The notes: a model not told the origin generated them from the letters alone. 64,000 nt of DNA from an uncultured Spirochaetota bacterium (GCA_964521865.1 CAZFTJ010000003.1:183745-247744); one strand, 5' to 3'; numbered from the stretch's first letter, positions 7,816 through 25,972 are shown. Program-made: numbers and translations.

Positions 7816-8874
7816 TCAGCATATACGGGGAAGCTGGTTTCCCACCGGCATGGTAATAATTCTGCTCGTACCGTAGGGTGTTTTCATGGTGAGACGTCCC
7901 GCCCCCTCATGGATCTCACCGATTTTCACGCTGCCTCTTCCCTCTTCAACGCTTCTCATCGCCTCAAGACATATCCGTGCCTTGCTTCCCGGCACAATTA
8001 CGATCATCTTTCCTTCGTTCGCCATCTGCAGCGGATCGAGACCGAGAATATCACAGAGACCCTGCACATCCTCATCGACCGGCAGTGCCTCCTCATCGAG
8101 TGCTATGGCGCATTCTGCACTTTCTGCAAGCTCGCAGAGAACCGCTGCGACTCCTCCCCTCGTCGGGTCGCGCGCACATTTGACCTCCGGCACAGCTTCG
8201 ATCACGGCCTGCATGAGATCGGAGAGAGGAGCACAGTCCGATCGTATGTCCGCCCCAAGTGAAAGATCGTTTCGTACGCTCAATATCGACGCCTCATGGT
8301 TGCCGATCGCCCCGCTTATTATAACTGCATCTCCTTCCGCTATCCGTGACGGTGAAAGCTCGACACCGGGCCGTACAACTCCCACTCCTGCGGTCGATAT
8401 GTATATGCCGTCGCCCCTGCCCTTTTCGACAACCTTCGTATCACCCGTTATGAGAGGGACGGGCACGCTGTCTGCGGTCTTTTTTATCGATACAAGCACC
8501 CTTTCGAGATCCCGGACCGGAAAACCCTCCTCGATGATCAGCCCGACGGACAGGGCGACCGGCAAAGCGCCTACAGCGGCGAGGTCGTTCACTGTTCCGC
8601 ATACGGAGAGCCTGCCGATATCTCCACCCGGAAAAAAGAGCGGAGTCACGACGAAGCTGTCGGTCGTCATAACCATTCTCGGCTGTTCTTCTGCAGTGGA
8701 ACCTCTCGAAATTCTTTCCACGGTCCTTCCGGCCCCTGCCGGGATATCGATACGTGAAGCATCCTCCATCCGATCCAGGGCCGGGTTGTCGAATGTGGAG
8801 ACGATGCCCTCGACGAGGCTTCTTGCCATACGGCCGCCGCCCCCATGTGTAAGCAGAATTCTCTCTACGCTCAT
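7816..8874 (-). CDS. hypE: [NiFe]-hydrogenase maturation protein HypE
   Basis: Ends in the characteristic C-terminal PRIC; AIR-synthase-like fold. Start placed at the ATG (MSVERILLTHGGGG) that follows GGAGGAGG; the longer track ORF begins at a non-ATG codon. Confidence 0.9.
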   Translation of the reverse strand: MSVERILLTHGGGGRMARSLVEGIVSTFDNPALDRMEDASRIDIPAGAGRTVERISRGSTAEEQPRMVMTTDSFVVTPLFFPGGDIGRLSVCGTVNDLAAVGALPVALSVGLIIEEGFPVRDLERVLVSIKKTADSVPVPLITGDTKVVEKGRGDGIYISTAGVGVVRPGVELSPSRIAEGDAVIISGAIGNHEASILSVRNDLSLGADIRSDCAPLSDLMQAVIEAVPEVKCARDPTRGGVAAVLCELAESAECAIALDEEALPVDEDVQGLCDILGLDPLQMANEGKMIVIVPGSKARICLEAMRSVEEGRGSVKIGEIHEGAGRLTMKTPYGTSRIITMPVGNQLPRIC

Positions 8875-9018
8875 ACCCCTCCTCCATTCTCCCGAAATTT
8901 GATGTTTAAATATTCTAATGTGGCTGTGAAAAAAAGAGAGCGGCAGCATGCCTTACGCATGATTTTAGGAGGCTTTTCCCGGATTATGAGGCGAACCCCG
9001 GGGATACGCACTGCCCGT

Positions 9019-10104
9019 TTAATCGCTTCGTCCGTATTTGTAGTATGCGGCACAGGACCCCTCCGAAGAAACCATACACGGCCCGACGGGATTCTCGGAC
9101 GTGCACCTTTTACCGAACAGTGCGCATTCCGGCGGAATTATTACTCCCCTGAGCACATCCGAGCATCTGCACCCCTTCGGATCGGGGCTTTCGACAAGAC
9201 GCAGCCCGAAATGCGCCAGCGCCTCGAGGTGGGTAAACTCTTCACGAAGTCTGAGACCGCTTTTCGGTATTTTCCCGATGCCGCGCCATTCGGCGTCTGT
9301 CGGTTCGAATACCCGATCCATCACATCGAGAGCGCGCACGTTTCCCTTCTCGGAGACCGCCCTTTTGTAGGTATTGGCGACGCCCGCCTCTCCCCTTGAC
9401 ACCCGACGTACGATTTCAAAGACAGCCGTCAGAATATCTACAGGCTCAAACCCGCCGACAACGCACGGCACATGAAACCGGTCGGCAATCGGTCTGTACG
9501 CGTCCCAGCCGATAATAACGCTCACATGACCGGGACATAAAAACCCGTCTATCCGTGTGTCATCACTGAGACACAGCGCCTCGAGCGCCGGTATTACCAG
9601 GCGGTTTGCGGCTATAAAGAACAGATTTTTTATACCTCGCTTTTCAGCTTCCAGAATGGATAGTGCGATCCCGGGAGTAGTAGTCTCAAATCCGACACTG
9701 ACAAACACGAACTCCCTGTCCTTTTCGGACGAAGCCATGTCCAGCAGTTCGTACGTCGAGTAGACGACGCGAACATCGGCACCCTCGGCCTTTATCTGTT
9801 CGAGGCTTCTCCCCGAGCCGGGAACACGCATCATATCTCCGAATGTCGCAACAGCAACATTCGAAAGCGCGGCCAGATCGAGCGCTGCATTTATAATCGA
9901 CGAGGGTGTAACGCAGACCGGACACCCCGGTCCTGAAATAAGCAAAAGCCCGTCCGGAAAAAGACCTCTGAGACCGTAGCGGGCGATCGCCATCGTATGG
10001 GTGCCGCAGACCTCCATGATCCTGACCGTGCCGCCCGGATAGATATCGCGTATCTTGCGCTCCAGCGTCTTTACGAGCTCCCTGTCCCTGTACGGTTCGT
10101 TCAC
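9019..10104 (-). CDS. hypD: [NiFe]-hydrogenase maturation protein HypD
   Basis: 361 aa with the HypD motifs CGTH and GPGCPVC. GTG start overlaps the hypC stop (GTGA), suggesting translational coupling. Confidence 0.92.
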   Translation of the reverse strand: MNEPYRDRELVKTLERKIRDIYPGGTVRIMEVCGTHTMAIARYGLRGLFPDGLLLISGPGCPVCVTPSSIINAALDLAALSNVAVATFGDMMRVPGSGRSLEQIKAEGADVRVVYSTYELLDMASSEKDREFVFVSVGFETTTPGIALSILEAEKRGIKNLFFIAANRLVIPALEALCLSDDTRIDGFLCPGHVSVIIGWDAYRPIADRFHVPCVVGGFEPVDILTAVFEIVRRVSRGEAGVANTYKRAVSEKGNVRALDVMDRVFEPTDAEWRGIGKIPKSGLRLREEFTHLEALAHFGLRLVESPDPKGCRCSDVLRGVIIPPECALFGKRCTSENPVGPCMVSSEGSCAAYYKYGRSD

Positions 10105-10328
10105 CGGCCTTCCTCCGGACGAAGCAGTTCCTCGAGCAGAGCGCGCGTTTCGAGCGCCTCCTGCTCATCGACGATCTGTATGGCGAATCCGGCATGGAGC
10201 AGAACATAATCTCCCACTTTTGCTTCCGGAACCAGATGAAAACCGGTATTGACTTTGATCCCGCTCATATCCACAACACCGGTCAATCCCTCTTTGCGTA
10301 TTATCTTTCCCGTTACTGCAAGACACAT
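10101..10328 (-). CDS. hypC: [NiFe]-hydrogenase maturation chaperone HypC
   Basis: 75 aa beginning MCLA (the conserved Cys2 N-terminus). Overlaps the hypF stop by 1 nt and the hypD start by 4 nt. Confidence 0.88.
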   Translation of the reverse strand: MCLAVTGKIIRKEGLTGVVDMSGIKVNTGFHLVPEAKVGDYVLLHAGFAIQIVDEQEALETRALLEELLRPEEGR

Positions 10329-12634
10329 TATCCCCTACCCCTTCCGCATCGTGCACGAGCGACGATACCCTGTCCGAATGCAATACCGCCGTCGTTCGGC
10401 GGCAGTAATCTGTGAATGAGCACTGAAAACCCGTTTTCCGACAGCATGCGCCGTAATGACTTCAGAACCGTACGGTTCTGAAACACTCCGCCGCTCAGCG
10501 CTACGGTGCCGATGCCTGTTTTTTCCCGAAGGCGCCGGCATACATCGACACCAGATAATATAACAGCGGCATGAAACTTTTGTGATATTAAAATGGGAGA
10601 AAGTTGGGCCCGTATGTCGTCGACGATCCCCCTGATTGCCGGCTCAAAATGTACATTCATCTCCGCATCCATATAATAGGAGTATGCGTCCTCACGTGAT
10701 ACGGGTAGAGATTCAGAAGCCCCTCCGGCCTTTTCAAGAAGCACTGCCCCCTGCGCATCGTATGACGGTCTGGAACAGAGTAAAATCATCGCTGACACCG
10801 CATCAAACAGCCTTCCACAGGACGACGTGGTCGGGCAGTTGACCCCCGAGCGTATCATCTTCTCCAGCAGGAAAAGCCTGCTTTTGTCGTACCTTTCAAT
10901 AAACGGAAAATCCGGGATATTCGATACAGAACCGAAGGCCTGAAGCAGGTACGATACCGCCATGCGGTCGGTTTCAGTAATCGCCTTTTCCCCGCCCGGC
11001 ATGGGAACAGGGAAGTATCGTGCGGCCCTGCTGAAATCCGCCCGCGTTGCAATGAGAAACTCACCGCCCCATATCGTGTTATCCGTACCGAATCCCGTCC
11101 CATCGAGTGCTATACCGATCACGGCAGCATTAACACCTGCCTCGCCGAGCACACCTGCTATATGCGCATGATGGTGCTGAACGCGCTCAAGCGGTATGCC
11201 TCGATCCGAGGCCGCACTCTCCGCAAGACGGGTGCTGATATACTCGGGGTGCATGTCGCAGACGAGTATTTCAGGTTCCACCCGAAGCATGCTCAAAAAA
11301 TCCTGAATACCTGCTAAAAAGGCGTCGACACTCGTGGTGTTGTTGAGATCGCCTATATGGTGGCTGACATAGGCCATCCCCTCCCTGAAAACACAGAAGG
11401 TATTTTTCTCATTCGGGCCGAAAGCAAGCAAAGCCCTGTCAGGCGGGCCTGCCGGTATGGCTTTCGGCACATACCCGCGGGACCTCCGCACCGGCACGGG
11501 AACCTCATCGCTCACGAAAAATACAGAATCGTCGCAGGGGCGCTGTATCTCCCTGTTGTGAACGAGAAAAGCATCCGCAATGCCGTCAAGCTCCTTAAAT
11601 GCCTCTGCATCCCGGTAAACGAGCGGTTCCTCGGATATATTCGCACTCGTCATTATAAGTATTTCAGGCCCTTTCCTCAGAAGAATATGATGCAGGGGTG
11701 TGTAGGGCAGCATAATACCGACGTAGTCCGTATCTGGTGCAATCTCTTCGGGCAGGTTGTTTTTTCTTCCCCTGAGCAGGACTATTGGCCGTTCAAAACC
11801 CCCTAGCAGGGCCTCTTCCCGCTCCCCGACGACGCAGTACTTTTTTACCGTACGCATATCCCGGGCCATCAGCGCAAAGGGTTTGGCGGGCCTTCGCTTC
11901 TTCTTCCGAAGGCGTACCACCCATTCCGATTTTGCAGGTGAAACCGCCATATGGTATCCGCCGAGACCTTTGACCGCAATGATGCGCCCCTGTCTTAACA
12001 TCGAAACTGCAGCGCCTATCGGATCGCCTTCCACAACCGACCCCGCAGCTGTTTTCAGTACAAGGCCCGGTCCGCATACAGGACATGCATTCGGCTGTGC
12101 GTGATACCGACGGTCGAGGGGATTCTCGTATTCGGCCGTACAGTCGTGGCACATCGTGAAATTACTCATCGTCGTATTTTTTCTGTCGTACGGAATAGAC
12201 CGTACGATCGTGAAACGAGGTCCGCAGTCCGTACAGTTGGTAAAGGGGTAGAAATACCTTCTGTTTTTCGGATCGAATATCTCCTCGAGGCAGCTGTCGC
12301 AGGTAGCAATGTCCGGAGAGATCGGAGTAAAACCCCCTCCTTCCACGGCGCTCCCGACTATATTGAGGCTCCTGAATCCGTGCGGTTTTTTATACTCGAT
12401 AGAGCTTTCGTGTATGTGAGCACGTACAGGGGGATTTTTCAAAACGTCTCTGTAGAATTGTTCGATATTTCGTTTTGAACCGTCAAGCTCGATGCACACG
12501 CCTGTTTCTGTGTTTCTGATTATCCCCCTGAGACGGTAGTAACGGGCTTTTCTATACGTAAGCGGCCGAAATCCCACCCCCTGTACGATGCCCTTATACC
12601 AGATAACGGCACCGGTTGTCCCGGTATTTTCCAT
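10328..12634 (-). CDS. hypF: Carbamoyltransferase HypF
   Basis: 768 aa. N-terminal acylphosphatase-like region, two CxxC-x18-CxxC zinc-finger pairs (CDSC...CTDCGPR; CHDC...CPVCGP), then YrdC-like and Kae1-like regions. Confidence 0.92.
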   Translation of the reverse strand: MENTGTTGAVIWYKGIVQGVGFRPLTYRKARYYRLRGIIRNTETGVCIELDGSKRNIEQFYRDVLKNPPVRAHIHESSIEYKKPHGFRSLNIVGSAVEGGGFTPISPDIATCDSCLEEIFDPKNRRYFYPFTNCTDCGPRFTIVRSIPYDRKNTTMSNFTMCHDCTAEYENPLDRRYHAQPNACPVCGPGLVLKTAAGSVVEGDPIGAAVSMLRQGRIIAVKGLGGYHMAVSPAKSEWVVRLRKKKRRPAKPFALMARDMRTVKKYCVVGEREEALLGGFERPIVLLRGRKNNLPEEIAPDTDYVGIMLPYTPLHHILLRKGPEILIMTSANISEEPLVYRDAEAFKELDGIADAFLVHNREIQRPCDDSVFFVSDEVPVPVRRSRGYVPKAIPAGPPDRALLAFGPNEKNTFCVFREGMAYVSHHIGDLNNTTSVDAFLAGIQDFLSMLRVEPEILVCDMHPEYISTRLAESAASDRGIPLERVQHHHAHIAGVLGEAGVNAAVIGIALDGTGFGTDNTIWGGEFLIATRADFSRAARYFPVPMPGGEKAITETDRMAVSYLLQAFGSVSNIPDFPFIERYDKSRLFLLEKMIRSGVNCPTTSSCGRLFDAVSAMILLCSRPSYDAQGAVLLEKAGGASESLPVSREDAYSYYMDAEMNVHFEPAIRGIVDDIRAQLSPILISQKFHAAVILSGVDVCRRLREKTGIGTVALSGGVFQNRTVLKSLRRMLSENGFSVLIHRLLPPNDGGIAFGQGIVARARCGRGRG

Positions 12635-12637
12635 ACG

Positions 12638-13279
12638 TTACAGCCTGTCGATGATCCATCCAAGGAGTTTGTCGAAGCCCTCTCCGGTTGCTGAGGAAAC
12701 CGGGATACTGGCGGATGAAGGGTTGACTTTGTGGAGCCTCTTTTCGAAGTTTTCGAGCCTGAAATCGGTGTTCGACTGCATATCTATTTTATTCACTACA
12801 ACGAGGTCTGCGGTTCTGTACATCGTAGGATATTTCTCCGGCTTATCGTCTCCCTCAGTGATGCTCGCGACGATTATTCTTCCGCTCTCACCAAGATCGA
12901 AGCCCGACGGGCAGACCAGGTTTCCGACATTCTCGATAAACAGCAGCGCAATATTGTCGAGCTCGATCGTATCGAGAGCCGATCTCACCATGGCTGCATC
13001 CAGATGGCACGCCCCGTTTGTATTGATCTGCGCGGACTGCACACCTGTTTTCGAGATTCTCTCGGCGTCATGCGAGGTGGCAAGGTCGCCTTCGATCACG
13101 GCGGCCTTCATCCGGGGGGGCAGCATCGGGACAAGCCGTTCAAGCATTGCGGTCTTTCCTGCACCGGGCGACCCCATGACATTCCAGCATGTGATCTTCC
13201 TGTTATGCAACATATTCCTGATATCCCGCGCAAGAAGATCGTTTGCCTGCAGAATATCGCTCATGACATTTACCTTCAT
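12638..13279 (-). CDS. hypB: Hydrogenase nickel-incorporation GTPase HypB
   Basis: P-loop GSPGAGKT and a GTPase/metal-binding region (ENVGNLVCP). Start placed at the ATG (MKVNVMSD) preceded by AAAGGA; the track ORF extends to a TTG at 13360. No His-rich or CxxCGC N-terminal metal site. Confidence 0.82.
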   Translation of the reverse strand: MKVNVMSDILQANDLLARDIRNMLHNRKITCWNVMGSPGAGKTAMLERLVPMLPPRMKAAVIEGDLATSHDAERISKTGVQSAQINTNGACHLDAAMVRSALDTIELDNIALLFIENVGNLVCPSGFDLGESGRIIVASITEGDDKPEKYPTMYRTADLVVVNKIDMQSNTDFRLENFEKRLHKVNPSSASIPVSSATGEGFDKLLGWIIDRL

Positions 13280-13471
13280 GAATTCATCCTTTCTTGATGT
13301 AATGCCGCCGTCAGGCAGCTTGTTTTCCGCGATACATAAGCGGTGGTTATGTCTGCTCAACTGGATTTATTATACGGCTCGAAGAGACGCATAACAAATC
13401 AGGTGTTTACACCGGCGGTGTTATAATGAATACGACCATTGAAATATCCGGCGAACCGCGGATTGATCCCG

Positions 13472-13714
13472 TCAGTCGCCTTCGAACGAGAGAACCTGAA
13501 GCTCAGACCCCCCGGACTCCTCTATGCTGATGTGAGCCCCCTCGGAAATCGTGTCTTTGGAGAGCACATCGAATGCAAAGAGAAGCGCATCGGCTAACAC
13601 ACCGGAGTACTTTCCGATTTTCAGGTTGATTTTCGAAATCTTCTGCATGCCCTCCTCTTCAGCCCGCCGGTGTATCATCTTCAGCAGCTCTTCCGTAATT
13701 GAAAGCTCATGCAT
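13472..13714 (-). CDS. hypA: HypA-like nickel metallochaperone, short form lacking the zinc-finger region
   Basis: Starts MHELSI (HypA N-terminal Ni-site motif) and stays colinear with HypA for about 80 aa, then stops (…LQVLSFEGD). Contains no cysteine at all and no CxxC pairs. A GTG at 13738 is an alternative start. Confidence 0.6.
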   Translation of the reverse strand: MHELSITEELLKMIHRRAEEEGMQKISKINLKIGKYSGVLADALLFAFDVLSKDTISEGAHISIEESGGSELQVLSFEGD

Positions 13715-13821: not shown

Positions 13822-14483
13822 TGTGATATTCGGTCCCCGGGGACGTAGACCACTTCTAACTAATATCTACCAATTTTCCCTTGTTTTCAATATTTTATTA
13901 ATGCCGCCGGCTCGCGTACCTGGAGGTATCGACAAATCAAGTAGAGCGGATACAATCCCCGCGTGCATGCCGCTCGACAGCGGCATTGCCTGCCCTGAAT
14001 ATCTTCCCCGATGATTATCAACTTCCTAAAGGAAAATATGACTTGACATTTTCATAAAAGAACAATACTAATAAAAGGGTTTCGTATCTTTAAAAAAAAT
14101 AGTTAATTTTTTAACATAGTTCTGGCGCTATTTCGGCCGATGAAGCGACTGCTGTATATCACCCGCCGCTTTTTTCCGCGGCACTGAATTTAACAGCGGC
14201 GGGGGTTGAGGTCAAGTAAAACCAAGCCGGCAAATTCCTCATAGAAGAATAGGGCCGATACGTCGCTGTTGAGACCAGAATGTCAAACTGCTGAATGAGC
14301 ATACACCGGGGCGTATCAGCGGGATGCACCCATCCAATCAAAAAAAGTGAGCGCCATTCAATTAATGCGGGAGGTAATAATAGAGAACATGCTATATACG
14401 CAGTATAGGCGTAATTTCCCCGCTGCAAAATATTGTAAGATTCACCAATACATGTGACTGATTATTCAATCGGAGGTACAGTA

Positions 14484-16277
14484 ATGGCAAATGATCAAAG
14501 CAAAGCCGTCAAGGAAATAGTCGAGGAGTACTGCAGCGACCGTGGACACTTGATGGACATTGCACGAAAAGTGCAAAACCGATTCGGATACATATCCGAA
14601 GAAAACATGGAGCACATTGCGAGGGCGTTGGGTATTCATCTCGTTGAAGTGCGTGACATGGTCAGTTTTTATACCTTCTTTTCACGAGAACCGGCGGGTA
14701 AGAATGTAATCCGTCTCTGTAATGCCGTTGTTGAGAAAATGCACGGAGCAGACCTTGTCGCCGATGCCTTTGAAAAGGAAGTGGGCGTTCCGTTCGGCAG
14801 TACGAGCACGGACGGGTCGATTTCACTCGAGTACACGTCATGTATCGGAATGAGCGATCAGCCTCCGTCCGCCCTGATCAACGGCATCCCCGTTACGAAA
14901 ATCTGCCCGGAAGATGTACCGGGCATCGTCAAAGAGCTCAAAAGCGGTACGAAGTACAGTCCTGAAAAAGCGGAAACGGTTCTTGCCGCCACCCTGCTCG
15001 AGAGCAATCTCAATAAGACGGGTCAGGTGGTTTTTTCACCACAGGAACCGGGGAACGGGATCAGGGCTGCGCTGAACATGCCGCCGGAGGATGTCATCAA
15101 CAGTATCAACGAATCTCGACTGCGTGGGCGCGGCGGTGCAGGCTTTCCCACAGGAATGAAGTGGAATTTCTGCAGAAAATCGAAAGGTGAAAATCACTAC
15201 GTGATCTGCAATGCGGATGAAGGAGAACCCGGTACCTTCAAGGACAGAGTCATCCTGACCGAGGCAGCGGACCTTGTTTTTGAAGGCATGACCATTGCAG
15301 GATATGCTGTTGGGGCATCGCAGGGCTTCATGTACCTGAGAGGAGAATTTCAGTACCTTCTCAGCTCCCTGGAGCAGGTGCTCAGCCGGCGAAGGCACAT
15401 CGGCCTCCTCGGAAAAAACATTGCCGGGAAGCAGGGATTCGACTTCGATATACGGATCCAGGTCGGTGCAGGAGCCTATATATGCGGAGAAGAATCCGCA
15501 CTCATCGAATCGCTCGAAGGAAAACGGGGCGCTCCGCGCGATAGACCGCCGTTCCCGGTGACCCGCGGGTACATGAACCAGCCGAGCTCCGTCAACAATG
15601 TCGAAACATTCTGCTGTTCAGCCCGTATCATGGAAAAGGGCGCAGAGTGGTTTTCCAGGCTCGGCACCAAAGATTCGACCGGTACAAAATGCCTGAGCGT
15701 ATCCGGCGACTGTGCGCACCCCGGGGTGTACGAGGTCGAATATGGAATTACGATCGACAATCTGCTGGATCTTGTGGGCGCGAAAGAAGCCCAGGCTGTG
15801 CAGGTGGGCGGACCGTCCGGAAGGTGCGTCGCACCGAAAGATTTCGGGCGAAGCATCAGCTTTGAAGACCTTCCTACCGGCGGCTCCGTGATCGTTTTCG
15901 GCAAGGAGCGGGACCTTCTCGAGATCGTCAGACAATTCACCGAATTCTTTGTAGAGGAGTCATGCGGCTGGTGCGCACCGTGCAGGGTTGGAACGACTCT
16001 CCTTTTACAGAAGCTTGAAAGGGTGATTGAGGGTAAAGGTTCACGGCTGGACCTCGAGGAGCTCGAGAGTCTCGGCAATACGGTGGAGAAGATGAGCCGC
16101 TGCGGTCTCGGCCAGACTGCTGCAAACCCCATTCTGACGACATTGAAGAATTTTCATTCGCTGTACACGGCAAAAGCAACATCCGGTGAGTTTATTCCAC
16201 CGTTCGACTATGAAAAAGCGCTTGCGGCGGGAATCCAGATTGCAGGGAGAGAACCTGTGGTGGAAGAGGAGGAATGA
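14484..16277 (+). CDS. hoxF: NAD(P)-linked hydrogenase diaphorase subunit HoxF (NuoE-like plus NuoF-like domains)
   Basis: FMN/NADH-binding NuoF-type motifs (GRGGAGFPTGMKW, CNADEGEPGTFKDR) and a 4Fe-4S motif (ESCGWCAPCR); about 150-aa NuoE-like N-terminus. Start at ATG 14484 preceded by GGAGG; the track ORF starts 30 nt earlier. Confidence 0.85.
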   Translation: MANDQSKAVKEIVEEYCSDRGHLMDIARKVQNRFGYISEENMEHIARALGIHLVEVRDMVSFYTFFSREPAGKNVIRLCNAVVEKMHGADLVADAFEKEVGVPFGSTSTDGSISLEYTSCIGMSDQPPSALINGIPVTKICPEDVPGIVKELKSGTKYSPEKAETVLAATLLESNLNKTGQVVFSPQEPGNGIRAALNMPPEDVINSINESRLRGRGGAGFPTGMKWNFCRKSKGENHYVICNADEGEPGTFKDRVILTEAADLVFEGMTIAGYAVGASQGFMYLRGEFQYLLSSLEQVLSRRRHIGLLGKNIAGKQGFDFDIRIQVGAGAYICGEESALIESLEGKRGAPRDRPPFPVTRGYMNQPSSVNNVETFCCSARIMEKGAEWFSRLGTKDSTGTKCLSVSGDCAHPGVYEVEYGITIDNLLDLVGAKEAQAVQVGGPSGRCVAPKDFGRSISFEDLPTGGSVIVFGKERDLLEIVRQFTEFFVEESCGWCAPCRVGTTLLLQKLERVIEGKGSRLDLEELESLGNTVEKMSRCGLGQTAANPILTTLKNFHSLYTAKATSGEFIPPFDYEKALAAGIQIAGREPVVEEEE

Positions 16278-16987
16278 TGAAAGAACAAAAGATCACAATA
16301 ATCATCGACGGTAAAGAAATCGAGGCGGTTTTCGGCCAGTCTATCATGCAGGCGGCCGATGCAGCGGGAATCTATATCCCGCGCCTCTGCTATCACAAAG
16401 ACCTGATTCCGGCCGGACACTGTCGGGTATGCACGGTAAAAGTCAATGGAAAACCGACAAATGCCTGTTCAATGCCTGCTGCAGACGGCATGGTCATTGA
16501 AAATGAAACTCCCGAATTGAACGAGGAGCGTCGGCATATAATAGAGATGCTCTTTGTGGAAGGGAATCACTTCTGCCCGTTCTGCGAAAAGAGCGGAGAC
16601 TGCGAACTGCAGGCGCTTGCGTATCGATTGGGCATGCTCACCCCGAGATACACGTATCAGTACAAGCATGTCGAAGTCGATGCAACACATCCGGATGTCT
16701 ACATCGATCGTGAGCGCTGTGTTCTCTGCGGCAGATGCGTGCGGGCATCGCGTGATATCGACGGGAAGGACGTGTTCGGATTTGTCGGACGCGGTATAAA
16801 CAAGCGAATTGCCGTGAATTCAAAGGGTGACCGATTATCCGATACAGAGCTTGCGGCAGCCGACAAAGCGGCTTCAATCTGCCCGACCGGCTGTATCGTC
16901 ATCAAACGTGTCGGCTATGCCAAGCCGTTCGGCACACGGTTGTATGACACGCAACCCATCGGCTCGGATATTCAGAAGACTCCGTAA
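16274..16987 (+). CDS. hoxU: Hydrogenase diaphorase iron-sulfur subunit HoxU (NuoG N-terminal-like)
   Basis: 237 aa with a 2Fe-2S ferredoxin-type N-terminus (CYHKDL...GHCRVC...C) and 4Fe-4S cysteine clusters (CPFCEKSGDC; CVLCGRC). Start overlaps the hoxF stop. Confidence 0.85.
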   Translation: MMKEQKITIIIDGKEIEAVFGQSIMQAADAAGIYIPRLCYHKDLIPAGHCRVCTVKVNGKPTNACSMPAADGMVIENETPELNEERRHIIEMLFVEGNHFCPFCEKSGDCELQALAYRLGMLTPRYTYQYKHVEVDATHPDVYIDRERCVLCGRCVRASRDIDGKDVFGFVGRGINKRIAVNSKGDRLSDTELAAADKAASICPTGCIVIKRVGYAKPFGTRLYDTQPIGSDIQKTP

Positions 16988-17013: not shown

Positions 17014-17553
17014 ATGGCCAAACCAAAAGTAGCGACAACACATATGACGGGGTGCTTTGGCTGTCACATGTCTCTCCTCGATATCGATGAAAAGATACTC
17101 GATCTGATTGAGCTTGTGGATTTCGACAAATCACCCATAGACGATATAAAGCAGTTTACGGGCACTGTTGATATCGGCCTGATCGAGGGAGGATGCTCCA
17201 CTCAGGAAAATGTTGAAGTGCTTCGTTCTTTTCGCAAGCACTGCAAAATTCTTATAGCAGTCGGAGAATGCGCCAATACCGGAGGTGTTCCACACCTGCG
17301 CAACATGATTCCCCTCAAAGAGTGCATGGAGGAAGCGTATCTCAACGGTCCGTCCGTCGTCGACGGCGTCATACCGAACGATCCCGATATTCCGCTCATT
17401 CTGGACAAGGTCTATCCCGTCCACGAAGTGGTAAAGATCGACTACTGGCTGCCGGGCTGTCCTCCCAGAGCGGAAACTTTCTGGGCCGCATTAACGGCTC
17501 TGCTTAAAGGCGAAGAACCGAAGCTGCCGTACGAGCTCATCAAATACGATTAA
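17014..17553 (+). CDS. hoxY: [NiFe]-hydrogenase small subunit HoxY
   Basis: 179 aa with the proximal-cluster cysteine pattern (GCFGC...GEC...GCPP); position between hoxU and hoxH. Confidence 0.85.
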   Translation: MAKPKVATTHMTGCFGCHMSLLDIDEKILDLIELVDFDKSPIDDIKQFTGTVDIGLIEGGCSTQENVEVLRSFRKHCKILIAVGECANTGGVPHLRNMIPLKECMEEAYLNGPSVVDGVIPNDPDIPLILDKVYPVHEVVKIDYWLPGCPPRAETFWAALTALLKGEEPKLPYELIKYD

Positions 17554-17573: not shown

Positions 17574-19016
17574 ATGGCTTCTGAGACAAAAGCACGAAAG
17601 ATCGTCATCAATCCGGTGACACGGATTGAAGGACATGCCAAGGTAACAATAAGGCTTGATGAAAACGGGAAAGTCGACAGGGCGAGGATGCATATTGTGG
17701 AGTTTCGCGGTTTTGAACGCTTTGTGCGCGGTCGTCTTTATTGGGAAGCACCGGTCATCGTACAGCGTCTGTGCGGGATATGTCCGGTCAGCCACCTGCT
17801 CTGCGCATCGAAGGCAATGGATGTCATCGTCGGAGCGGATAGACTGACACCGACCGCTGAGAAGATGAGGAGGCTTTTGCACATGGGGCAGGTGTACCAG
17901 TCCCATTCACTGCATTTCTTCCACCTCAGCGCACCCGATCTGCTCCTCGGGTACGATGCAGACCCTGTAATCAGGAACGTCATCGGACTTGCAAAGAAGA
18001 ACACAGATCTCGCCGTGCAGGCGGTTATGATGCGGAAGTACGGCCAGGAAGTGATCAAAGCAACCGCAGGCAAGAAGATACACGGCAACGGATCGATTCC
18101 CGGCGGCATGAATAAGAACCTGTCGATCGAAGAACGGGATGCCCTGCTCGAGGATGTCGACCGGATGATCGACTGGGCACAGGGTGGTCTTGATCTATAC
18201 AAGAAACTTTACCGCGACGACACCGCTCGTCTGAGCAAGCTCGGCTCATTTGAGTCGAATTTTGTCAGTATCGTCCGGGAGGATGGAGCGCTCGACATGT
18301 ATGACGGCAAGCTCAGGGCGAAAGATCCTGACGGCAACCTGATTTTCGATATGGTCGAGCCGAAAGACTATTTAAAGTACATACGGGAAGGGGTGAGAAA
18401 CTGGAGCTACATGAAATTCCCGTTCATTTACTCGCTCGGTCAGGAGAAGGGCTGGTACCGCGTCGGTCCGCTCGCACGGCTGAACAACTGCGATTTCATC
18501 ACGACCCCGAAGGCCGAGAAGGAGCGTCGGGAGTTTATGGAGCTCGGAGGCGGCAGGCCTGTCCATTCAACCATGGCCTATCACTGGGCACGGCTGATTG
18601 AAACCCTGTATGCGGCTGAAAGAATAAAGGAGCTTCTGAACGATCCGGACCTGCAGGGAGATGATCTCGTCGTGAGCGGCGAAAGGAGAAACGAGGGAAT
18701 AGCCATCATCGAGGCGCCGAGGGGCACCCTGTTCCATCACTATCGGGTGGATGACACGGATCAGATCACCATGGCGAATCTCATCGTTTCGACCACGAGC
18801 AACAATCAGCCGATGAATGAGGCGGTGCGCGTCGTTGCAGAGGATCATATTGCCGGTAGAGAGGTTACGGAACCGCTGTTGAACCTCGTTGAGGTTGCGA
18901 TACGGGCCTATGACCCCTGCCTGAGCTGTGCCACCCATGCAATCGGTCGGATGCCTCTTATCGTGACCCTGGAAGACGAAGGCGGCGCCGTGATCGATAG
19001 AAAAGTGCGGGATTGA
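17574..19016 (+). CDS. hoxH: [NiFe]-hydrogenase large subunit HoxH
   Basis: N-terminal RLCGICPVSH (RxCGxCxxxH) and C-terminal DPCLSCATHA (DPCxxCxxH) Ni-Fe ligand motifs; a 25-residue tail follows the His, as expected for a protease-processed precursor. Confidence 0.92.
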   Translation: MASETKARKIVINPVTRIEGHAKVTIRLDENGKVDRARMHIVEFRGFERFVRGRLYWEAPVIVQRLCGICPVSHLLCASKAMDVIVGADRLTPTAEKMRRLLHMGQVYQSHSLHFFHLSAPDLLLGYDADPVIRNVIGLAKKNTDLAVQAVMMRKYGQEVIKATAGKKIHGNGSIPGGMNKNLSIEERDALLEDVDRMIDWAQGGLDLYKKLYRDDTARLSKLGSFESNFVSIVREDGALDMYDGKLRAKDPDGNLIFDMVEPKDYLKYIREGVRNWSYMKFPFIYSLGQEKGWYRVGPLARLNNCDFITTPKAEKERREFMELGGGRPVHSTMAYHWARLIETLYAAERIKELLNDPDLQGDDLVVSGERRNEGIAIIEAPRGTLFHHYRVDDTDQITMANLIVSTTSNNQPMNEAVRVVAEDHIAGREVTEPLLNLVEVAIRAYDPCLSCATHAIGRMPLIVTLEDEGGAVIDRKVRD

Positions 19017-19020
19017 CCGG

Positions 19021-19863
19021 GTGGACTGTAAATCTGTGCTGATATACGGATACGGGAACCCGGGACGTCAGGACGACGGCCTGGGCCCGGCGATGGTAGA
19101 GCAGATAGAGCGTCTCGGCTTCGGCTTTGTGGAGACGGATGCGAACTATCAGCTGAGTATTGAGGATGCCGCTGAAATGGCGGCGCACGACTTTGTCGTT
19201 CTCATAGATACGACGGTTCAGGATGTCGACTGTTTTTCAATCCGTAAGGTGCTGCCTGCTTCCGCTATCACCTTCACCAGTCATCTTGTCGACCCTGAAT
19301 CCATCGTGGCCCTGTGCGATGATGCATTCGGCAGGGTGCCCGATGTATGGATTATTGGCATCAGGGGATACGAGTTCGAGTTCACAGAGGGCTTTACCGA
19401 AAGGGCACAGAAGAACTACCGGAAGGCGTTTGTTTTTATAACTCAACTATTACGTATATATGGGGAAAGAATTATGGCGACCACGAAAAACGAGGAAAAA
19501 ACAGTATTAATTATTGATGACGATGCCGATATCAGGGCCTCGATACGGATAGTGTTGGAGGCTGCCGGTTTTTCAGTCGGAGAGGCGGGGGACGGAGAAG
19601 AGGGCTTGAAAGTCGCCCAGAAGGTCAATCCGGAGGCAGTCATTGTCGATCTGATGATGGAAACGGTCGATGCGGGCAGCAGGGTATCGGCAAAGCTGAA
19701 AGAATCTGGGTTCAAGGGACCGATCTACCTGCTCAGCGCTGCCGGGGATACGGTCCGCTACAACATCGATGCCAAGGACCTCGGCCTCGACGGTATTTTC
19801 CAGAAGCCGATCAACCACGAGGTCCTCATCAGCACGCTGAAGACGAAGCTCAATATCAAATAA
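19021..19863 (+). CDS. hoxW: Hydrogenase maturation endopeptidase HoxW continuing in frame into a CheY-like receiver (REC) domain
   Basis: Residues 1-150 carry protease motifs (GYGNPGRQDDGLG; conserved Asp in VVLIDT; His in TSHLVD). With no stop codon, the frame continues into a complete REC domain from ATG 19474 (LIIDDDADIR, VIVDLMME, LLSA, FQKP). GGGGAAAGA lies just upstream of 19474, so independent initiation of the REC part is also possible. Confidence 0.7.
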   Translation: MDCKSVLIYGYGNPGRQDDGLGPAMVEQIERLGFGFVETDANYQLSIEDAAEMAAHDFVVLIDTTVQDVDCFSIRKVLPASAITFTSHLVDPESIVALCDDAFGRVPDVWIIGIRGYEFEFTEGFTERAQKNYRKAFVFITQLLRIYGERIMATTKNEEKTVLIIDDDADIRASIRIVLEAAGFSVGEAGDGEEGLKVAQKVNPEAVIVDLMMETVDAGSRVSAKLKESGFKGPIYLLSAAGDTVRYNIDAKDLGLDGIFQKPINHEVLISTLKTKLNIK

Positions 19864-20208: not shown

Positions 20209-21945
20209 ATGAAGTTCAAAACATTCATCGTCATTTTTATCGCACTGGCAATGATTTTTTCAGTGCAGGCCGTCTTTGCCGGCGGCAAGAAGAAAGAGGA
20301 GGCTGCTCCCGCAGCAGCTCCTGCCGAGGAAAAGGCCGCACCGGCCGAAAAGGAGAAGGCTCCTGAAAAAAAGGAGGCTCCCGTACCAGCGCAGGTACTG
20401 GTATTCGGCAGCAGCGGCGATGCAGCCCGGTTGGATCCTGGAGATGTGACGGACGGAGAGTCCATCCAGAGAATGGACAACATTTTTGAAGGCCTGGTTG
20501 AATACAAGGAAGGCTCCACAGAAATACAACCGGCCCTGGCTACTTCATGGGAAACGTCTGCAGACGGCAAAGAAATTACCTTTCACCTGAGGAAGGGAGT
20601 AAAGTTCCACGACGGGACCGATTTCAATGCAGATGCCGTTGTATTCTCCTTTGCCAGACAGTACGATCCGCACCATCCCTACCATCAGTACGGAGAATGG
20701 GCATACTGGGGATATATGTTCTATGATGTGGACAGAATGGAGAAGATCGACGATTATACGGTAAAACTGGTGCTTAAGAATGTCAATGCTTCGATAATGA
20801 CAAGCCTCGCAATGTTCACAACGGCTATTGTAAGCCCGACCAATGCCGAGAAATACAAGGGCGATGCCTTCAAGCATCCCTGCGGGACAGGCCCCTTCAA
20901 ATTCGTCGAATGGGTAAAGGATGACCACATCACCCTCGAGGCGAACGACAACTATTGGCGGAAAAGGCCCAAACTCGACAAGTTGATCTTCAAGGTTATC
21001 CCCGATCCTTCCGCCAGGCTTCTGGCGCTGGAGGTCGGCGAAGTCCAGGGCATAGAATATCCGAATCCTGCCGATTTCGAACGAATAAAATCCAATAAAA
21101 ATCTCAAACTGCTTACAGCTCCGGGAATGAATATCGGATACATGGCCATGAATGCCGGGTACGGATATAACGACGCCAATGAAAACGGCATACGCGATGC
21201 GGATGAACCGCTTGTCAAGACTCCCGGATATTATGAGCCCCTTACCAAGAAAAAGGTGAGACAGGCTATCAACTACGCTATTGATAAAAAGTCAATCGTG
21301 GATAATATCTACATGGGAACCGCAATAGTGGCAAAGAACGGAATGCCGCCGTTTATGCTTGGATACAACAATGATATCAAGGATTATCCCTACGACCCCC
21401 AAAAGGCAAAACAGCTTCTTGCGGAAGCCGGGTATCCGAACGGATTTGAAGTTACCCTGTACGTCATGCCGGTATCACGACCCTATATGTTCGACCCACC
21501 GAAGATCGGAGAAGCGATTCAGAGTTATCTTGCTGCCGTCGGCATCAAGGTGAAATTCTACCAGGTGGACTGGGGGACCTATCTGCAGGAAACTGAGGCC
21601 GGAAAGCATCAGATGTGTCTTCTCGGATGGACAGGCGACAACGGCGACCCCGATAATTTTATGAACGTCCTGTACGGCGCAAACGCCTGTTCGATAGGGA
21701 AAGCCGGCAACTACGGCTTCTATACCGACGAAAAAACCCAGGAGCTTCTTACCGCGGCGCTGCAGACCTACGATGTGAAGAAAAGGGCAGAGTACTATAA
21801 GGAAGCGCAGGTACGAATACATGAAAGTGCGAACTGGGTATATATCGCTCATTCCAATCAGAATGTGGTGTTCAGGTCGAATGTGCAGGGATATGTGCTG
21901 CATCCCACATCGAGAAAGTTCTTCTACCCTGTGTGGATAAAGTAA
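20209..21945 (+). CDS. ABC transporter substrate-binding protein, Opp/Dpp/Nik family (cluster 5)
   Basis: 578 aa; signal peptide (MKFKTFIVIFIALAMIFSVQAVFA), a 45-aa Ala/Pro/Glu/Lys-rich linker, then the large bilobed binding-protein architecture. Followed by two permeases and two ATPases. Substrate (nickel vs peptide) cannot be read from sequence alone. Confidence 0.85.
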   Translation: MKFKTFIVIFIALAMIFSVQAVFAGGKKKEEAAPAAAPAEEKAAPAEKEKAPEKKEAPVPAQVLVFGSSGDAARLDPGDVTDGESIQRMDNIFEGLVEYKEGSTEIQPALATSWETSADGKEITFHLRKGVKFHDGTDFNADAVVFSFARQYDPHHPYHQYGEWAYWGYMFYDVDRMEKIDDYTVKLVLKNVNASIMTSLAMFTTAIVSPTNAEKYKGDAFKHPCGTGPFKFVEWVKDDHITLEANDNYWRKRPKLDKLIFKVIPDPSARLLALEVGEVQGIEYPNPADFERIKSNKNLKLLTAPGMNIGYMAMNAGYGYNDANENGIRDADEPLVKTPGYYEPLTKKKVRQAINYAIDKKSIVDNIYMGTAIVAKNGMPPFMLGYNNDIKDYPYDPQKAKQLLAEAGYPNGFEVTLYVMPVSRPYMFDPPKIGEAIQSYLAAVGIKVKFYQVDWGTYLQETEAGKHQMCLLGWTGDNGDPDNFMNVLYGANACSIGKAGNYGFYTDEKTQELLTAALQTYDVKKRAEYYKEAQVRIHESANWVYIAHSNQNVVFRSNVQGYVLHPTSRKFFYPVWIK

Positions 21946-21972
21946 GATAACCGTACTGTGCATAATCTATTC

Positions 21973-22003
21973 GCCGGCAAAGGGGACGCTGTCCTTTTGC
22001 CGG
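21973..22003 (+). terminator. Imperfect stem-loop between the binding-protein and permease genes (possible intra-operon attenuator)
   Basis: GCCGGCAAAGGGGAC-gct-GTCCTTTTGCCGG, about 12 bp stem with one bulge. No T-run directly after it, but a T8 run lies at about 22055. Confidence 0.3.
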
Positions 22004-22128
22004 TGAAATTATGAATGAGAGGCCTCATCCGAAGATAAAAAATGTGTCCGGGAGGGCACTTTTTTTTATTAAAAGTATTGATGAGAGACAGCTTTAAAAA
22101 ATGGACTGAATAAGACTGGTGTCGATAC

Positions 22129-23133
22129 ATGAAATGGTATATTACAAAGCGCCTGCTCATGCTTGTGCCCGTACTGCTGGGAGTTTCAATTCTTTCATTT
22201 TCCCTGATTCAACTCGCACCTGGAGACCCTGCAATAACGATGGCGGGCGAGCACGCATCACCACAAACAATCAATGCAATAAGAGAAAAATACGGACTGG
22301 ATAAACCGATTACAACCCAGTACTGGATCTGGCTGAAAAAAGTCCTGCACGGCGATATGGGACGCTCCATCGTTTCCAACGAATACGTTATGAAAGAAAT
22401 ACTTCATAGATTTCCCAATACCGTTGAGCTTACCTTCTGTGCAATGGCGATCGCCATACTTGTCGGTTCTTTGGCCGGAATCGTCTCAGCTTCCAGGCAG
22501 TACTCTGTTCTCGATTATTCAACAATGGGAGTCGCTCTCTTCGGGGTCTCAATGCCCGTTTTCTGGCTTGGAATTATGCTCATGATGATTTTCGGCGTGT
22601 TTCTACGGTGGCTCCCCATAGGCGGTCGCATCGATTCGCTTATTCCCTTCAAACGAATCACCGGTTTCTATCTGCTTGACAGCATCATTACATGGAACGG
22701 CCCTGCTTTTATAAGTACTATCCGATATTTAATCCTGCCCTCCGTCGCTCTCGGCACCATCCCCATGGCGACGATCGCCAGAGTGACCAGGTCGAGTATG
22801 CTGGAGGTATTGAGGCAGGATTTCATACGTACCGAGCGTGCAAAAGGATTATCCGAACGTCTGGTCATCTATAAACACGCGGCGAGAAATGCATTGCTTC
22901 CCGTCATTACGGTTATCGGATTGAATTTCGGTTTGCTTCTTGCCGGTGCTATTCTCACAGAAACAGTCTTCTCCTGGCCCGGAATAGGAAGATACGTGAT
23001 AAACGCAGTACGCATGCGTGATTATCCCGCTGTGCAGGGGTGCGTACTGTTCTTTGCTTTTATGTTCGTCATCGTTAATCTGATTACGGACATACTCTAT
23101 GTATTCATCGATCCGAGAATTAAATACAGGTAG
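22129..23133 (+). CDS. ABC transporter permease (DppB/NikB-like)
   Basis: 334 aa, six hydrophobic helices, permease signature region (IARVTRSSMLEVLRQDFIRTERAKGL). Confidence 0.88.
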   Translation: MKWYITKRLLMLVPVLLGVSILSFSLIQLAPGDPAITMAGEHASPQTINAIREKYGLDKPITTQYWIWLKKVLHGDMGRSIVSNEYVMKEILHRFPNTVELTFCAMAIAILVGSLAGIVSASRQYSVLDYSTMGVALFGVSMPVFWLGIMLMMIFGVFLRWLPIGGRIDSLIPFKRITGFYLLDSIITWNGPAFISTIRYLILPSVALGTIPMATIARVTRSSMLEVLRQDFIRTERAKGLSERLVIYKHAARNALLPVITVIGLNFGLLLAGAILTETVFSWPGIGRYVINAVRMRDYPAVQGCVLFFAFMFVIVNLITDILYVFIDPRIKYR

Positions 23134-23143
23134 ACCCAACGCC

Positions 23144-24025
23144 ATGGAAAAAAAGAAAGAAACCAGAACAGCAGAAGTAATTAGACGGCTGAGATACAAC
23201 AAGTCGGCGACGTTCGGTCTGGTCATCCTCATTATTCTGATCATGTGTGCTATCTTCGCAAACGTAATTGCTCCCAATAACCCGATCCCCTCACCGCCGG
23301 ATCTAGCCAATAAGTTAAAGCCCGGGTTCTGGAGCGCACAGGGCCTGAAGGGCAAACCGCTCGGAACCGATGCCCTCGGACGGTGCGTTCTCAGCAGAAT
23401 AATCTACGGAACCAGGGTCAGCTTGAGCGCCGGTTTTGTTGCCGTCGGAATCGCCATGATCCTCGGCATTACCTTTGGAACAATTGCGGGTTATTTCGGA
23501 GGATGGGTCGATGCAACGATAATGAGACTGGTGGATATTATGTTTGCATTCCCCGCGCTGCTTCTGGCAATCGTAATTGTCACCATTATAGGCCAGGGTC
23601 TGAGCAAAGCGATGATCGCCATCGGCATTGTGTACACCCCGCAGATGGCGCGAATTATCAGAAGCTCGGTACTCTATATCAAGGAAATGGAGTACATAGA
23701 AGTGCAGACAGCGCTGGGATCGCGAAGCCTGCGGATTATTTTTCGTCATGTTCTGCCGAACAGCGTTGCTCCGGTAATCGTATACGGAACCCTGATGCTG
23801 GCGACCGCAATTCTTGACTGTGCGGCTCTGGGTTTTTTAGGCCTGGGAGCCCAGCCTCCCACACCCGAATGGGGTGCGATGCTCTCAAAAAGCTACTCCT
23901 ATATAGTGAGCGGTGCATGGTGGGCGGCAACTTTTCCCGGAATCGCCATCCTCCTTTCAGTGCTCGGACTCAACCTGCTGGGAGACGGTTTGCGGGATAT
24001 TCTTGACCCGAGATTGAAAACATAG
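23144..24025 (+). CDS. ABC transporter permease (DppC/NikC-like)
   Basis: Hydrophobic multi-pass protein with a conserved permease loop ([17 protein letters not shown]). Start placed at ATG 23144 (MEKKKE) just after the upstream stop. Confidence 0.86.
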
Positions 24026-24033
24026 AACAGATC

Positions 24034-24996
24034 ATGAAAGAGCTACTGAACGTAAAAAACCTGAACACCTCCTTCTTTACACATGAGGGAACGGCAAAAG
24101 CTGTGGACAGGGTCAGTTTCACCATCAAACAGGGAGAAACGCTTGGACTTGTCGGAGAATCCGGATGCGGAAAAAGCGTTACCGCTCTCTCAATAATGAG
24201 GCTGGTTCAGCATCCTCCCGGTAAGATTCTGGGAGGAGAAATTATTTTTAAGGGGAAGAACCTCCTGGATCTGTCGGAGAAAGAAATGAGAAAGGTACGG
24301 GGAAAAAAAATTTCCATGATTTTCCAGGAGCCCATGACGTCGCTGGACCCCGTATTCACCATCGGTCATGAAATAATGGAATCCATCAGACTGCATCAGG
24401 GATTAAATAAGGCGCAGGCAAAAAAAGAGGCAATAAAAACTCTTTCAATTGTCGGGATACCGGATGCAGAAAAAAGGATAAACTGCTACCCGCATGAGCT
24501 TTCCGGCGGAATGCGGCAGAGAGCGATGATCGCAATGGCACTGGCGTGCAACCCGGCACTGCTCATTGCCGATGAACCCACAACTGCGCTTGATGTCACC
24601 ATTCAGGCGCAGATCCTGAGATTGATCAATGAAATGAAGGATAGGTTCAACGCTTCGGTACTGCTGATAACACATGATCTGGGGGTGATTGCCCAAATGT
24701 GTGATGATGTTGCAGTGATGTATGCGGGGAATATTGTTGAGTATACCGATGTGGACACGCTGTTCGGCAATCCGCTGCATCCCTACACCATGGGACTTAA
24801 TAAATCCATACCAAGGCTCGATGTAAATACGAAACGGCTCGAAACAATAAAAGGCCTGGTGCCGAATCTCCTTGCCATACCCTCAGGATGCTCGTTTCAT
24901 CCAAGGTGCAATTTCTGCTTTGAAAAATGTGTTACCGAACCTCCCGAATTAAAGAAGATCGATTCCAATCATCTTGTAAAATGCTATTTGTATTAA
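24034..24996 (+). CDS. ABC transporter ATP-binding protein (DppD/NikD-like)
   Basis: Walker A GESGCGKS, signature LSGGMRQR, Walker [14 protein letters not shown]-loop ITHD; C-terminal oligopeptide-type extension. Confidence 0.9.
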
Positions 24997-25009
24997 GGGG
25001 ACCGTCGGA

Positions 25010-25972
25010 TTGGAAAAATTGATTGAAGTAAAAAATCTGAAAAAATGGTTTTGGACGGGGAAAAAAGGACCGATGGGAAAAGAGGCTGTGAGGGCCGTCG
25101 ATGACGTCAGCTTCTCTATAGAAAGACGGGAAGTTCTCGGGCTCGTCGGCGAATCGGGCTGCGGGAAGACAACGTGCGGGAAAGTAATCCTGAAAATATT
25201 GGAACCGACCGACGGCAGCATTTTTTTTAACGGAAGAGAAATAACTCATTTGAAAAAAAGGGAGATGATGCCGATCAGGCGCAGGATGATGGTCATTTAT
25301 CAAGACCCCTTTGGCTCTCTCGATCCGAGAATGACGATCAAATCGACAATAGCCGAGCCAATGGCAGTACATAATTGTGTGCCGAAAAAAAAGCGGGAAG
25401 AAAAGGTAATAGAAATTATGGAAAAGGTCGGGCTCACACCCGATCAGAGGTTTCGATATCCCCATGAGTTCAGCGGGGGCCAGAGACAGCGAATCGGAAT
25501 TGCACGGGCTCTGGCAATAAACCCGGATTTTATTGTTGCAGATGAATCGGTCTCGGCCCTGGACGTTTCTATTCAGGCTCAGATCATAAATTTATTGCAC
25601 GATCTGCAGGAGGAATTCGGGATAACCCTTCTCTTTATAGCACACGATTTGAGTGTCATAAAACACATAAGCGACCGCATTGCTGTTATGTACCTGGGCA
25701 CGATCGTTGAAAAGGCTTCCAAAAAAGTCATCTTTGACGACCCGAAACACCCGTATACCAGAGCGCTCCTTTCGGCAATACCCGTCCCCAACCCGAGGCT
25801 CAAAAAAAAGGGTGAAATTTTAACGGGCGATGTTCCAAGCCCGGTCAACCCCCCTTCGGGATGCAGGTTTCATCCGAGATGCCCGTACAAGATGGATATA
25901 TGCGACAAAAAAGTACCGGAGTTGAAGGAAATAACTCCGAATCAGTTTGTGGCGTGTTTCCTGTATGCCTGA
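25010..25972 (+). CDS. ABC transporter ATP-binding protein (DppF/NikE-like)
   Basis: Walker [10 protein letters not shown], signature FSGGQRQR, Walker [13 protein letters not shown]-loop IAHD. Confidence 0.9.

Follow-up and report, generated by a model that had tools for sequence, protein, structure and literature searches.

A conserved 80-residue HypA without the zinc domain heads the hyp operon beside a Hox-type [NiFe] hydrogenase in an uncultured Spirochaetota bacterium

The window, meaning the whole stretch of 64,000 nucleotides analyzed here, derives from an uncultured Spirochaetota bacterium. It contains the hyp genes in the order hypA-B-F-C-D-E on the minus strand, divergent from hoxFUYH and from a gene coding a maturation protease fused to a receiver domain. 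The genes are as follows:

7816 to 8949, minus strand: hypE, with Pfam AIRS and AIRS_C and with orthologues in related loci (coordinates of the longest ORF)
9019 to 10104, minus strand: hypD; orthologues at the same position carry PF01924 (tblastn identity 60-86%)
10101 to 10328, minus strand: hypC, 75 residues, beginning MCLAV; related loci have PF01455 HupF_HypC genes, 56-94% identical to it, in this position
10328 to 12634, minus strand: hypF, with Pfam Acylphosphatase, zf-HYPF, Sua5, HypF_C and HypF_C_2
12638 to 13279, minus strand: hypB of the GTPase type, 213 residues from MKVNVMSDIL..., matching TIGR00073 and PDB 2HF8/4LPS
13472 to 13714, minus strand: hypA devoid of the zinc domain, 80 residues plus stop, starting at the ATG of the MHE motif
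14454 to 16277, plus strand: hoxF-like diaphorase subunit (NuoE-NuoF fusion; NCBIfam NuoF and NuoE), a conserved neighbor divergent from hypA
16274 to 16987, plus strand: hoxU-like Fe-S subunit, an ORF whose orthologues carry Fer2/NADH-G_4Fe-4S_3
17014 to 17553, plus strand: hoxY-like hydrogenase small subunit; orthologues carry PF01058 (82-96% identity in relatives)
17574 to 19016, plus strand: hoxH, the [NiFe] hydrogenase large subunit, with Pfam NiFeSe_Hases, and PF27537 HoxH on orthologues
19021 to 19863, plus strand: hydrogenase maturation endopeptidase (residues 7-142; TIGR00072, 50.2 bits, cutoff 47.45) fused to a response-regulator receiver (residues 162-273; PF00072)

The true hypE start may lie downstream of that of the longest ORF, the proteins of relatives being of about 339 residues. 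HoxH, the presumed client of HypA, has in translation the RLCGICP motif near its N-terminus and DPCLSCATH followed by a C-terminal extension of 25 residues.

Read from 13714 to 13472 on the minus strand, hypA is an ORF of 80 codons, whose product runs MHELSITEE...SGGSELQVLSFEGD up to the stop; the full sequence is MHELSITEELLKMIHRRAEEEGMQKISKINLKIGKYSGVLADALLFAFDVLSKDTISEGAHISIEESGGSELQVLSFEGD, it contains no cysteines, and a database protein (P0001) matches it at 100%. A longer ORF is possible from an upstream GTG (13738); however, the ATG at 13714 was taken as the start because all homologues begin at MHE and because the free Met1 amine takes part in the nickel site (PMC5557546). Indeed, the nickel ligands of HypA are the Met1 amine, His2 and Glu3 (PMC5557546), and the ORF opens with MHE in codons 1-3, as the original prediction stated. 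The protein scores 64.5 bits against Pfam HypA PF01155 (E=1.1e-17; gathering 28.9), the match covering positions 1-67 of a profile with 112, and 62.8 bits against NCBIfam TIGR00100, under the equivalog cutoff of 88.1, with only positions 1-66 of 116 matched; existing annotation pipelines label these short proteins HypA. Three parts of the gene can be distinguished:

13706 to 13714, minus strand: codons M1-H2-E3, the N-terminal nickel-binding motif, invariant in 34 short homologues (alignment A2) and in all aligned full-length HypAs (alignment A1)
13505 to 13519, minus strand: codons 66-70 (E-S-G-G-S), the junction at the site of the missing ribbon of about 31 residues (A1, A3, comparison with L015), a predicted tight beta-hairpin turn
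13472 to 13510, minus strand: codons 69-80 and stop, the retained C-terminal strand of the nickel domain, aligning to G-x-EL-x-I-x-S-(F/I)-E of full-length HypAs

Residues 1-68 are colinear with full-length HypAs, then a gap of about 31 residues covers the entire CxxC...CxxC zinc ribbon, and residues 69-80 (GSELQVLSFEGD) align to the HypA C-terminal strand, G-R-EL-x-I-x-S-I-E (A1, A3); phmmer pairs these C-terminal residues with H. pylori HypA 102-113. The strand is retained in frame, as G-x-ELQVLSFEGD, and its residues G69, E71, L72, F77, E78 and G79 do not vary within the short family. Translation, PF01155 match and alignment gap therefore agree with the original prediction of a HypA homolog without zinc finger and without cysteines. 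That prediction also held that colinearity extends for about 80 residues and that the protein stops where CxxC-x12-CxxC would begin: colinearity stands for residues 1-68, but the stop does not, since the ribbon gap is followed by the C-terminal strand. Judging from the alignments, the zinc domain is deleted internally and the protein is not truncated. A sister HypA of 111 residues from another Spirochaetota (L015) and the window HypA are exactly 31 residues apart (IEM[VSPSFSCQKCKRIINLDNDRCPHCGSEEIKV]SGGNELQ versus IEE-SGG-SELQ), thus one in-frame deletion of 93 nt would account for the short form.

The absence of CxxC pairs downstream of hypA in the three frames, already reported in the first reading of this DNA, extends over the whole 195 nt between hypA and hypB, where no CxxC occurs in any frame; the wider hypA region has one lone CxxC (CIRC), read within the gene body in another frame, and no CxxC pair. 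A frameshift that would restore a CxxC-containing C-terminus was looked for in this region and none was found. The unusual length is the only point in favor of an artefact of sequencing or assembly, or of a frameshift, concealing such a C-terminus, and this explanation is hardly credible: besides the clean 195 nt, the canonical C-terminal strand already ends the protein, the same architecture recurs in independent assemblies from four sources, and an indel in the window would not explain the other 34 clusters of short homologues. A zinc domain supplied in trans by a small neighboring ORF was also considered and rejected; the hypA-hypB gap of the window has no CxxC ORF, and in several relatives it measures only about 20-40 nt.

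The hypA-hypB spacer (13280 to 13471, minus strand) is about 190-207 nt long here and in L004/L005, and about 20-60 nt in most relatives. It contains a single promoter-like match, TTGTTA-17-TATAAT (13397 to 13369), with no Rfam hits and no terminator-like sites; over the hypA-hoxF and hypA-hypB intergenic regions together, promoter/terminator scanning and Rfam gave nothing above chance. A different kind of shortening is found in a Chloroflexia MAG (L066, 6001-6207), where a HypA-like ORF of 69 residues ends ...TFSTCAG just at the expected beginning of the zinc ribbon; in contrast to the window HypA, it looks like a genuine truncation, a frameshift or a pseudogene.

The AlphaFold2 model of the window HypA, obtained with A1, has a pLDDT of 95.0 and a pTM of 0.83. 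The predicted elements are a helix (2-20), a strand (26-34), a helix (41-51) and a strand (61-67), followed by a 4-residue turn and a last strand (72-79). The strands flanking the zinc domain in canonical HypA are thus predicted to be joined as a simple hairpin, leaving the nickel domain complete. When the model was compared with the PDB by Foldseek, the top 14 hits were all HypA chains (5YY0, 5AUN, 3A43, 6G81, 2KDX; TMq 0.75-0.86), and no significant match besides HypA was obtained. With the HypA/HybF proteins of T. kodakarensis (3A43, 5AUN) and H. pylori (2KDX, 6G81), the window HypA shares MHE, the nickel-domain fold including the C-terminal strand, and the place of first hyp gene beside hypB; it differs from them in lacking the entire zinc domain of about 31 residues, with its two CxxC, and any conserved cysteine. 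The short form is not a standard, widespread variant with a known zinc-free structure, since all three PDB HypA sequences carry the zinc domain.

Among the features that define the family, MHE at the very N-terminus (invariant also in A1, A2 and A4), the alpha/beta nickel-domain fold (in the predicted structure) and coding together with hypB and other hyp genes beside a [NiFe] hydrogenase are all found in the window; the structural zinc site with its two CxxC motifs is absent. The protein descends from HypA and probably works like HypA, but it lacks one feature by which the family is defined. Reviews credit every HypA protein with both metal sites (PMC7055735; PMC13202556), and a 2026 paper describes the zinc site as stabilizing, essential for partner interaction and conserved in architecture (PMC13202556). 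A description of a zinc-less or truncated HypA was not found in the literature searched, although absence from the searched library is no proof. As far as its sequence goes, a conserved HypA of 80 residues contradicts the reviews that assign a zinc site to every HypA.

The window protein is not isolated. Database searching gave 35 zinc-domain-less clusters (at 90% identity), all but one of 80-81 residues, the exception reaching 93 residues via a longer called N-terminus. Their identity to the window protein ranges from 100% down to 59%, and they come from independent JGI, ENA, NCBI and Logan assemblies, of Spirochaetes/Spirochaetota where named; seven GTDB species-representative MAGs carry the short form. 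The short-form alignment (A2) has 24 invariant columns, among them M1, H2 and E3, and no conserved cysteine. dN/dS was 0.089 for the window versus L008 (dS 0.43), 0.055 versus L009, and 0.068 for L010 versus L012; these values are usable because the pairs are unsaturated, the farther ones being saturated at synonymous sites. Lengths and codon comparisons show the short hypA to be under purifying selection at constant length. A separate profile search of 11,505 HypA representatives returned only full-length proteins among its best 150, because the A1 profile had kept the zinc columns (113 positions).

These data refute the suggestion, made when the gene was first noticed, that hypA is decaying: at least 34 clusters keep 80-81 residues, dN/dS is 0.05-0.09, and the gene holds the first position in a complete hypABFCDE operon. 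A pseudogene remnant is therefore a very improbable explanation, in spite of the loss of a domain that reviews call universal (PMC7055735) and of a score below the NCBIfam equivalog cutoff. It would leave unexplained the 24 invariant residues, the in-frame C-terminal strand, the model with pLDDT 95 and the conservation of an independent zinc-less family, described below; moreover, identities of 59-91% exclude copies of one assembly.

The surroundings of the short gene are conserved as well. In 12 of 12 loci with a readable upstream flank (the window and 11 related ones) hoxFUYH is divergent from short hypA; the protease-receiver gene comes after hoxH in every locus that reaches that far, namely nine of the 12 (the window and eight others), and hypB-F-C-D-E lie behind every short hypA as far as the contig extends. 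The nearest full-length relatives of the window HypA are the 111-residue HypAs of other Spirochaetota (L015-L021). Together with P0036 and P0037, these sisters of 111-117 residues have in common with it the ...GGxELxIxSFEGD end, the hypABFCDE order and the N-terminal motif of HypB; they differ in keeping the 31-residue ribbon with two CxxC, and in having hyp operons that are not divergent from hoxFUYH-protease-receiver. Indeed, the hox operon is adjacent in none of nine sister loci with a HypA of 111-117 residues. Over the nickel domain, identity between window and sister HypAs is 39-58% by tblastn, and in the MAFFT alignment 64% with P0036 and 54% with P0037, while HypB, HypF, HypC, HypD and HypE of the sister loci are as similar to those of the window as are those of distant members of the short clade. 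A second HypA was found by six-frame HMM search neither in the 64-kb window nor in 16 related loci (5.5-20 kb each), nor did one from the seven short-form MAGs appear among the 80 best genome-contig matches; Pfam scans of the 49 large ORFs of the 64-kb window revealed no SlyD (FKBP) and no NikR.

HypB is the expected partner of HypA, and the window protein is an ordinary member of its family: it scores 253.6 bits against TIGR00073 (cutoff 121.2; G3E P-loop GTPase), and it matches the PDB entries 2HF8 of M. jannaschii (E=1.6e-52) and 4LPS of H. pylori (E=4e-43). The longest hypB ORF extends upstream to a TTG at 13360; the MKVNV start is the one common to all relatives. The resulting N-terminus, MKVNVMSDILQANDLLARDIRNMLHNRKITCWNVMGSPGAGKT, has neither CxxCGC nor a His-rich stretch before the G-domain, in accordance with the original prediction, and the window HypB shares the CHx30C metal site of the G-domain with all 16 readable related HypBs; GTPase-type HypB subgroups and the G-domain metal motif CH-X30-34-C have been described (PMC13202556). 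In these respects (P-loop, CHx30C, no CxxCGC or His stretch) the protein is like the short-N-terminus GTPase HypBs 4LPS and 2HF8, with no notable difference. Thus, of the reduced HypA/HypB module that had been envisaged, the HypA half stands, being cut to the nickel domain, but HypB is a normal short-N-terminus GTPase with an intact CHx30C site. A hydrophobic-x-hydrophobic motif at the N-terminus of HypB was mapped experimentally as the HypA-binding site in A. fulgidus and E. coli (PMC3287977); allowing for an alignment offset, V3-N4-V5 of the window HypB align with the region holding Y4/L6 in A. fulgidus and L78/V80 in E. coli, and the protein thus appears to carry this motif where the G-domain begins. 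These comparisons were also examined for co-evolution of HypB with the zinc-domain loss, and none was found; the N-terminal sequence of HypB (MKVNVMSDILKANDLLA) and its CHx30C do not differ between lineages with an 80-residue and those with a 111-residue HypA, hence HypB needed no change when the zinc domain was lost.

A second zinc-less family was found in Oscillospiraceae. One of the 80 genome hits, a MAG (L043), codes a HypA of 81 residues without CxxC, and a search with this protein gave at least 11 clusters (P0216-P0226), all of 81 residues and 67-99% identical. The genes located are (family L043, L088-L090):

L043, 6001 to 6243: zinc-less hypA of 81 residues
L088, 10001 to 10246: zinc-less hypA of 81 residues
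L090, 2736 to 2981: zinc-less hypA of 81 residues

The protein is 33% identical to the window HypA, and its predicted structure (pLDDT 93.2) has the same helix-strand-helix-strand-turn-strand topology. The two families share the restriction to the nickel domain, an invariant M1-H2-E3 (A2, A4) and the location beside a [NiFe] hydrogenase; they differ in junction, parent lineage and operon. The deletion boundaries are indeed others in Oscillospiraceae, where PDxFR(T/C/S) is kept, G-x-EL is lost and the sequence resumes at YVES (A3); the parent lineage is represented by a 114-residue sister, P0227; and the gene directly follows the large-subunit gene of a group-4 [NiFe] hydrogenase of the Mbh/Mrp type, in a cluster that has hypF-C-D-E upstream and lacks hypB. 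In a neighbor-joining tree built on 80 nickel-domain columns the two short families stand apart, each beside full-length relatives of its own lineage. Since the Oscillospiraceae family is unrelated, the zinc domain was lost at least twice; within Spirochaetota, the 111-residue HypA of L016 nests inside the short clade, and the resolution of the tree is too low to count the losses there as one.

The reading that best accounts for these observations, to which we assign a probability of roughly 0.7, is that the window protein is a functional, naturally minimized HypA, orthologous to the Spirochaetota hypA that heads hypABFCDE. A single in-frame deletion of about 93 nt would have removed the zinc ribbon, the flanking strands of the nickel domain being joined via the 4-residue turn. 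GTPase-type HypB would bind nickel at CHx30C and dock on HypA through the hydrophobic-x-hydrophobic motif in its N-terminal MKVNV; the metal would then be handed to the Met1-amine/His2/Glu3 site of the 80-residue HypA, which would dock on the N-terminal tail of apo-HoxH and insert it, after which the adjacent protease would cleave the 25-residue C-terminal extension. [quoted passage not shown] The contacts with HypB and HyhL are all made by the nickel domain, which is intact here, so that a HypA consisting of this domain only is mechanistically plausible; and, since every step proposed would use nickel-domain surfaces only, the zinc domain may be dispensable in this lineage.

Some observations count against a minimized, functional HypA. 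H. pylori mutants in the zinc-site cysteines have hydrogenase activity from about 60% down to near knockout (PMC5557546), with the caveat that they keep a misfolded zinc loop, unlike the clean hairpin predicted for the window HypA. In T. kodakarensis the fourth nickel ligand is His98, in the complex with an ATPase-type HypB (PMC7055735), and His98, located after the first 66 residues and before the C-terminal strand, falls within the segment missing from the window HypA; however, this is a different system, with a HypB of the ATPase type. Finally, the TIGR00100 score of 62.8 is under the cutoff of 88.1.

The importance of the zinc site in H. pylori (PMC5557546), and the view that it is needed for partner interactions (PMC13202556), would also fit another explanation, in which the 80-residue protein is conserved and is not the nickel inserter: it would be an adaptor or scaffold docking HypB on HoxH, or a regulator of nickel flux, and a canonical HypA/HybF or a SlyD-type protein coded elsewhere would transfer the metal. 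E. coli HypA is indeed thought to scaffold HypB onto the large subunit (PMC7055735), our view covers 64 kb of the source genome and 5.5-20 kb of each related one, and no hypB adjoins the Oscillospiraceae gene. Nevertheless, such a role is unlikely: a pure scaffold would not need the MHE that both zinc-less families keep invariant, the gene holds the orthologous first hyp position, with the other five Hyp proteins ordinary, and neither the window (no second HypA, SlyD or NikR in its 49 large ORFs) nor the related loci (no second HypA) provide a substitute; the lack of a second hit from the same MAGs among the best 80 genome matches weighs weakly in the same direction.

A functional minimal HypA is compatible with a broader proposal, which we hold at even odds: the cysteine-free nickel domain of 80 residues would be the sole and sufficient HypA for an NAD-linked Hox hydrogenase, the zinc domain being dispensable, and the same minimization would have occurred independently in Oscillospiraceae for an Mbh-type enzyme, apparently without an adjacent HypB. 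That each minimal HypA lies beside one specific hydrogenase suggests that the zinc domain may serve client selection, regulation or stability in systems with several clients, and not nickel delivery.

The HypA zinc domain has been regarded variously as structural, as a pH or nickel sensor, or as a surface for partner interaction, and the H. pylori zinc-site point mutants are hard to read because they also destabilize HypA. Two independently evolved, conserved HypAs made of the nickel domain only thus represent a natural test of its role; if the short HypAs mature hydrogenases, the nickel domain alone suffices to take up nickel from HypB and pass it to the large subunit. A protein of 80 residues, devoid of cysteines and metal-simple, also lends itself, as a minimal chaperone, to NMR, crystallography and the production of hydrogenases in heterologous hosts. 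For annotation, the short HypA falls under the NCBIfam cutoff, and a requirement for CxxC would misread it as a pseudogene.

The genes near the hox operon show further peculiarities. The product of the protease-receiver gene (19021 to 19863, plus strand), directly 3′ of hoxH, is of the HoxW/HycI type and contains the motifs GNPGRQDDGLG, LIDT and TSH. The fusion is conserved in relatives, and at least 120 clusters of full-length homologues (270-300 residues) come from phyla that include Spirochaetota, Hydrogenedentota and Nitrospiraceae, some labeled "response regulator" and others "hydrogenase maturation protease"; in the literature searched, the terms "HoxW" and "receiver domain" did not occur together in any paper. 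Its domain composition suggests a hydrogenase maturation controlled by phosphorylation. A candidate redox- or thiol-sensing kinase for the fused receiver is an 825-residue protein coded at 33013 to 35490 on the minus strand, which combines HisKA and HATPase_c with a flavoprotein resembling CoA-disulfide reductase (TIGR03385, E=8e-127) and with a rhodanese domain. In L004/L005 this kinase-flavoprotein-rhodanese fusion adjoins the protease-receiver gene and the hox operon, whereas in L006/L007 and L015 its neighbor is the hyp operon.

At 20209 to 25972 on the plus strand, downstream of the hox genes, lies an ABC transporter of the Opp/Dpp/Nik type, comprising an SBP_bac_5 protein, two permeases and two oligo_HPY ATPases. 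The SBP_bac_5 protein matches the nikA model TIGR02294 with E=7e-72, below the cutoff, and DppA scores better; a nickel importer is a possible assignment. In L006, a sister locus with full-length HypA, a similar transporter and a NikR_C gene lie close to the hyp operon.
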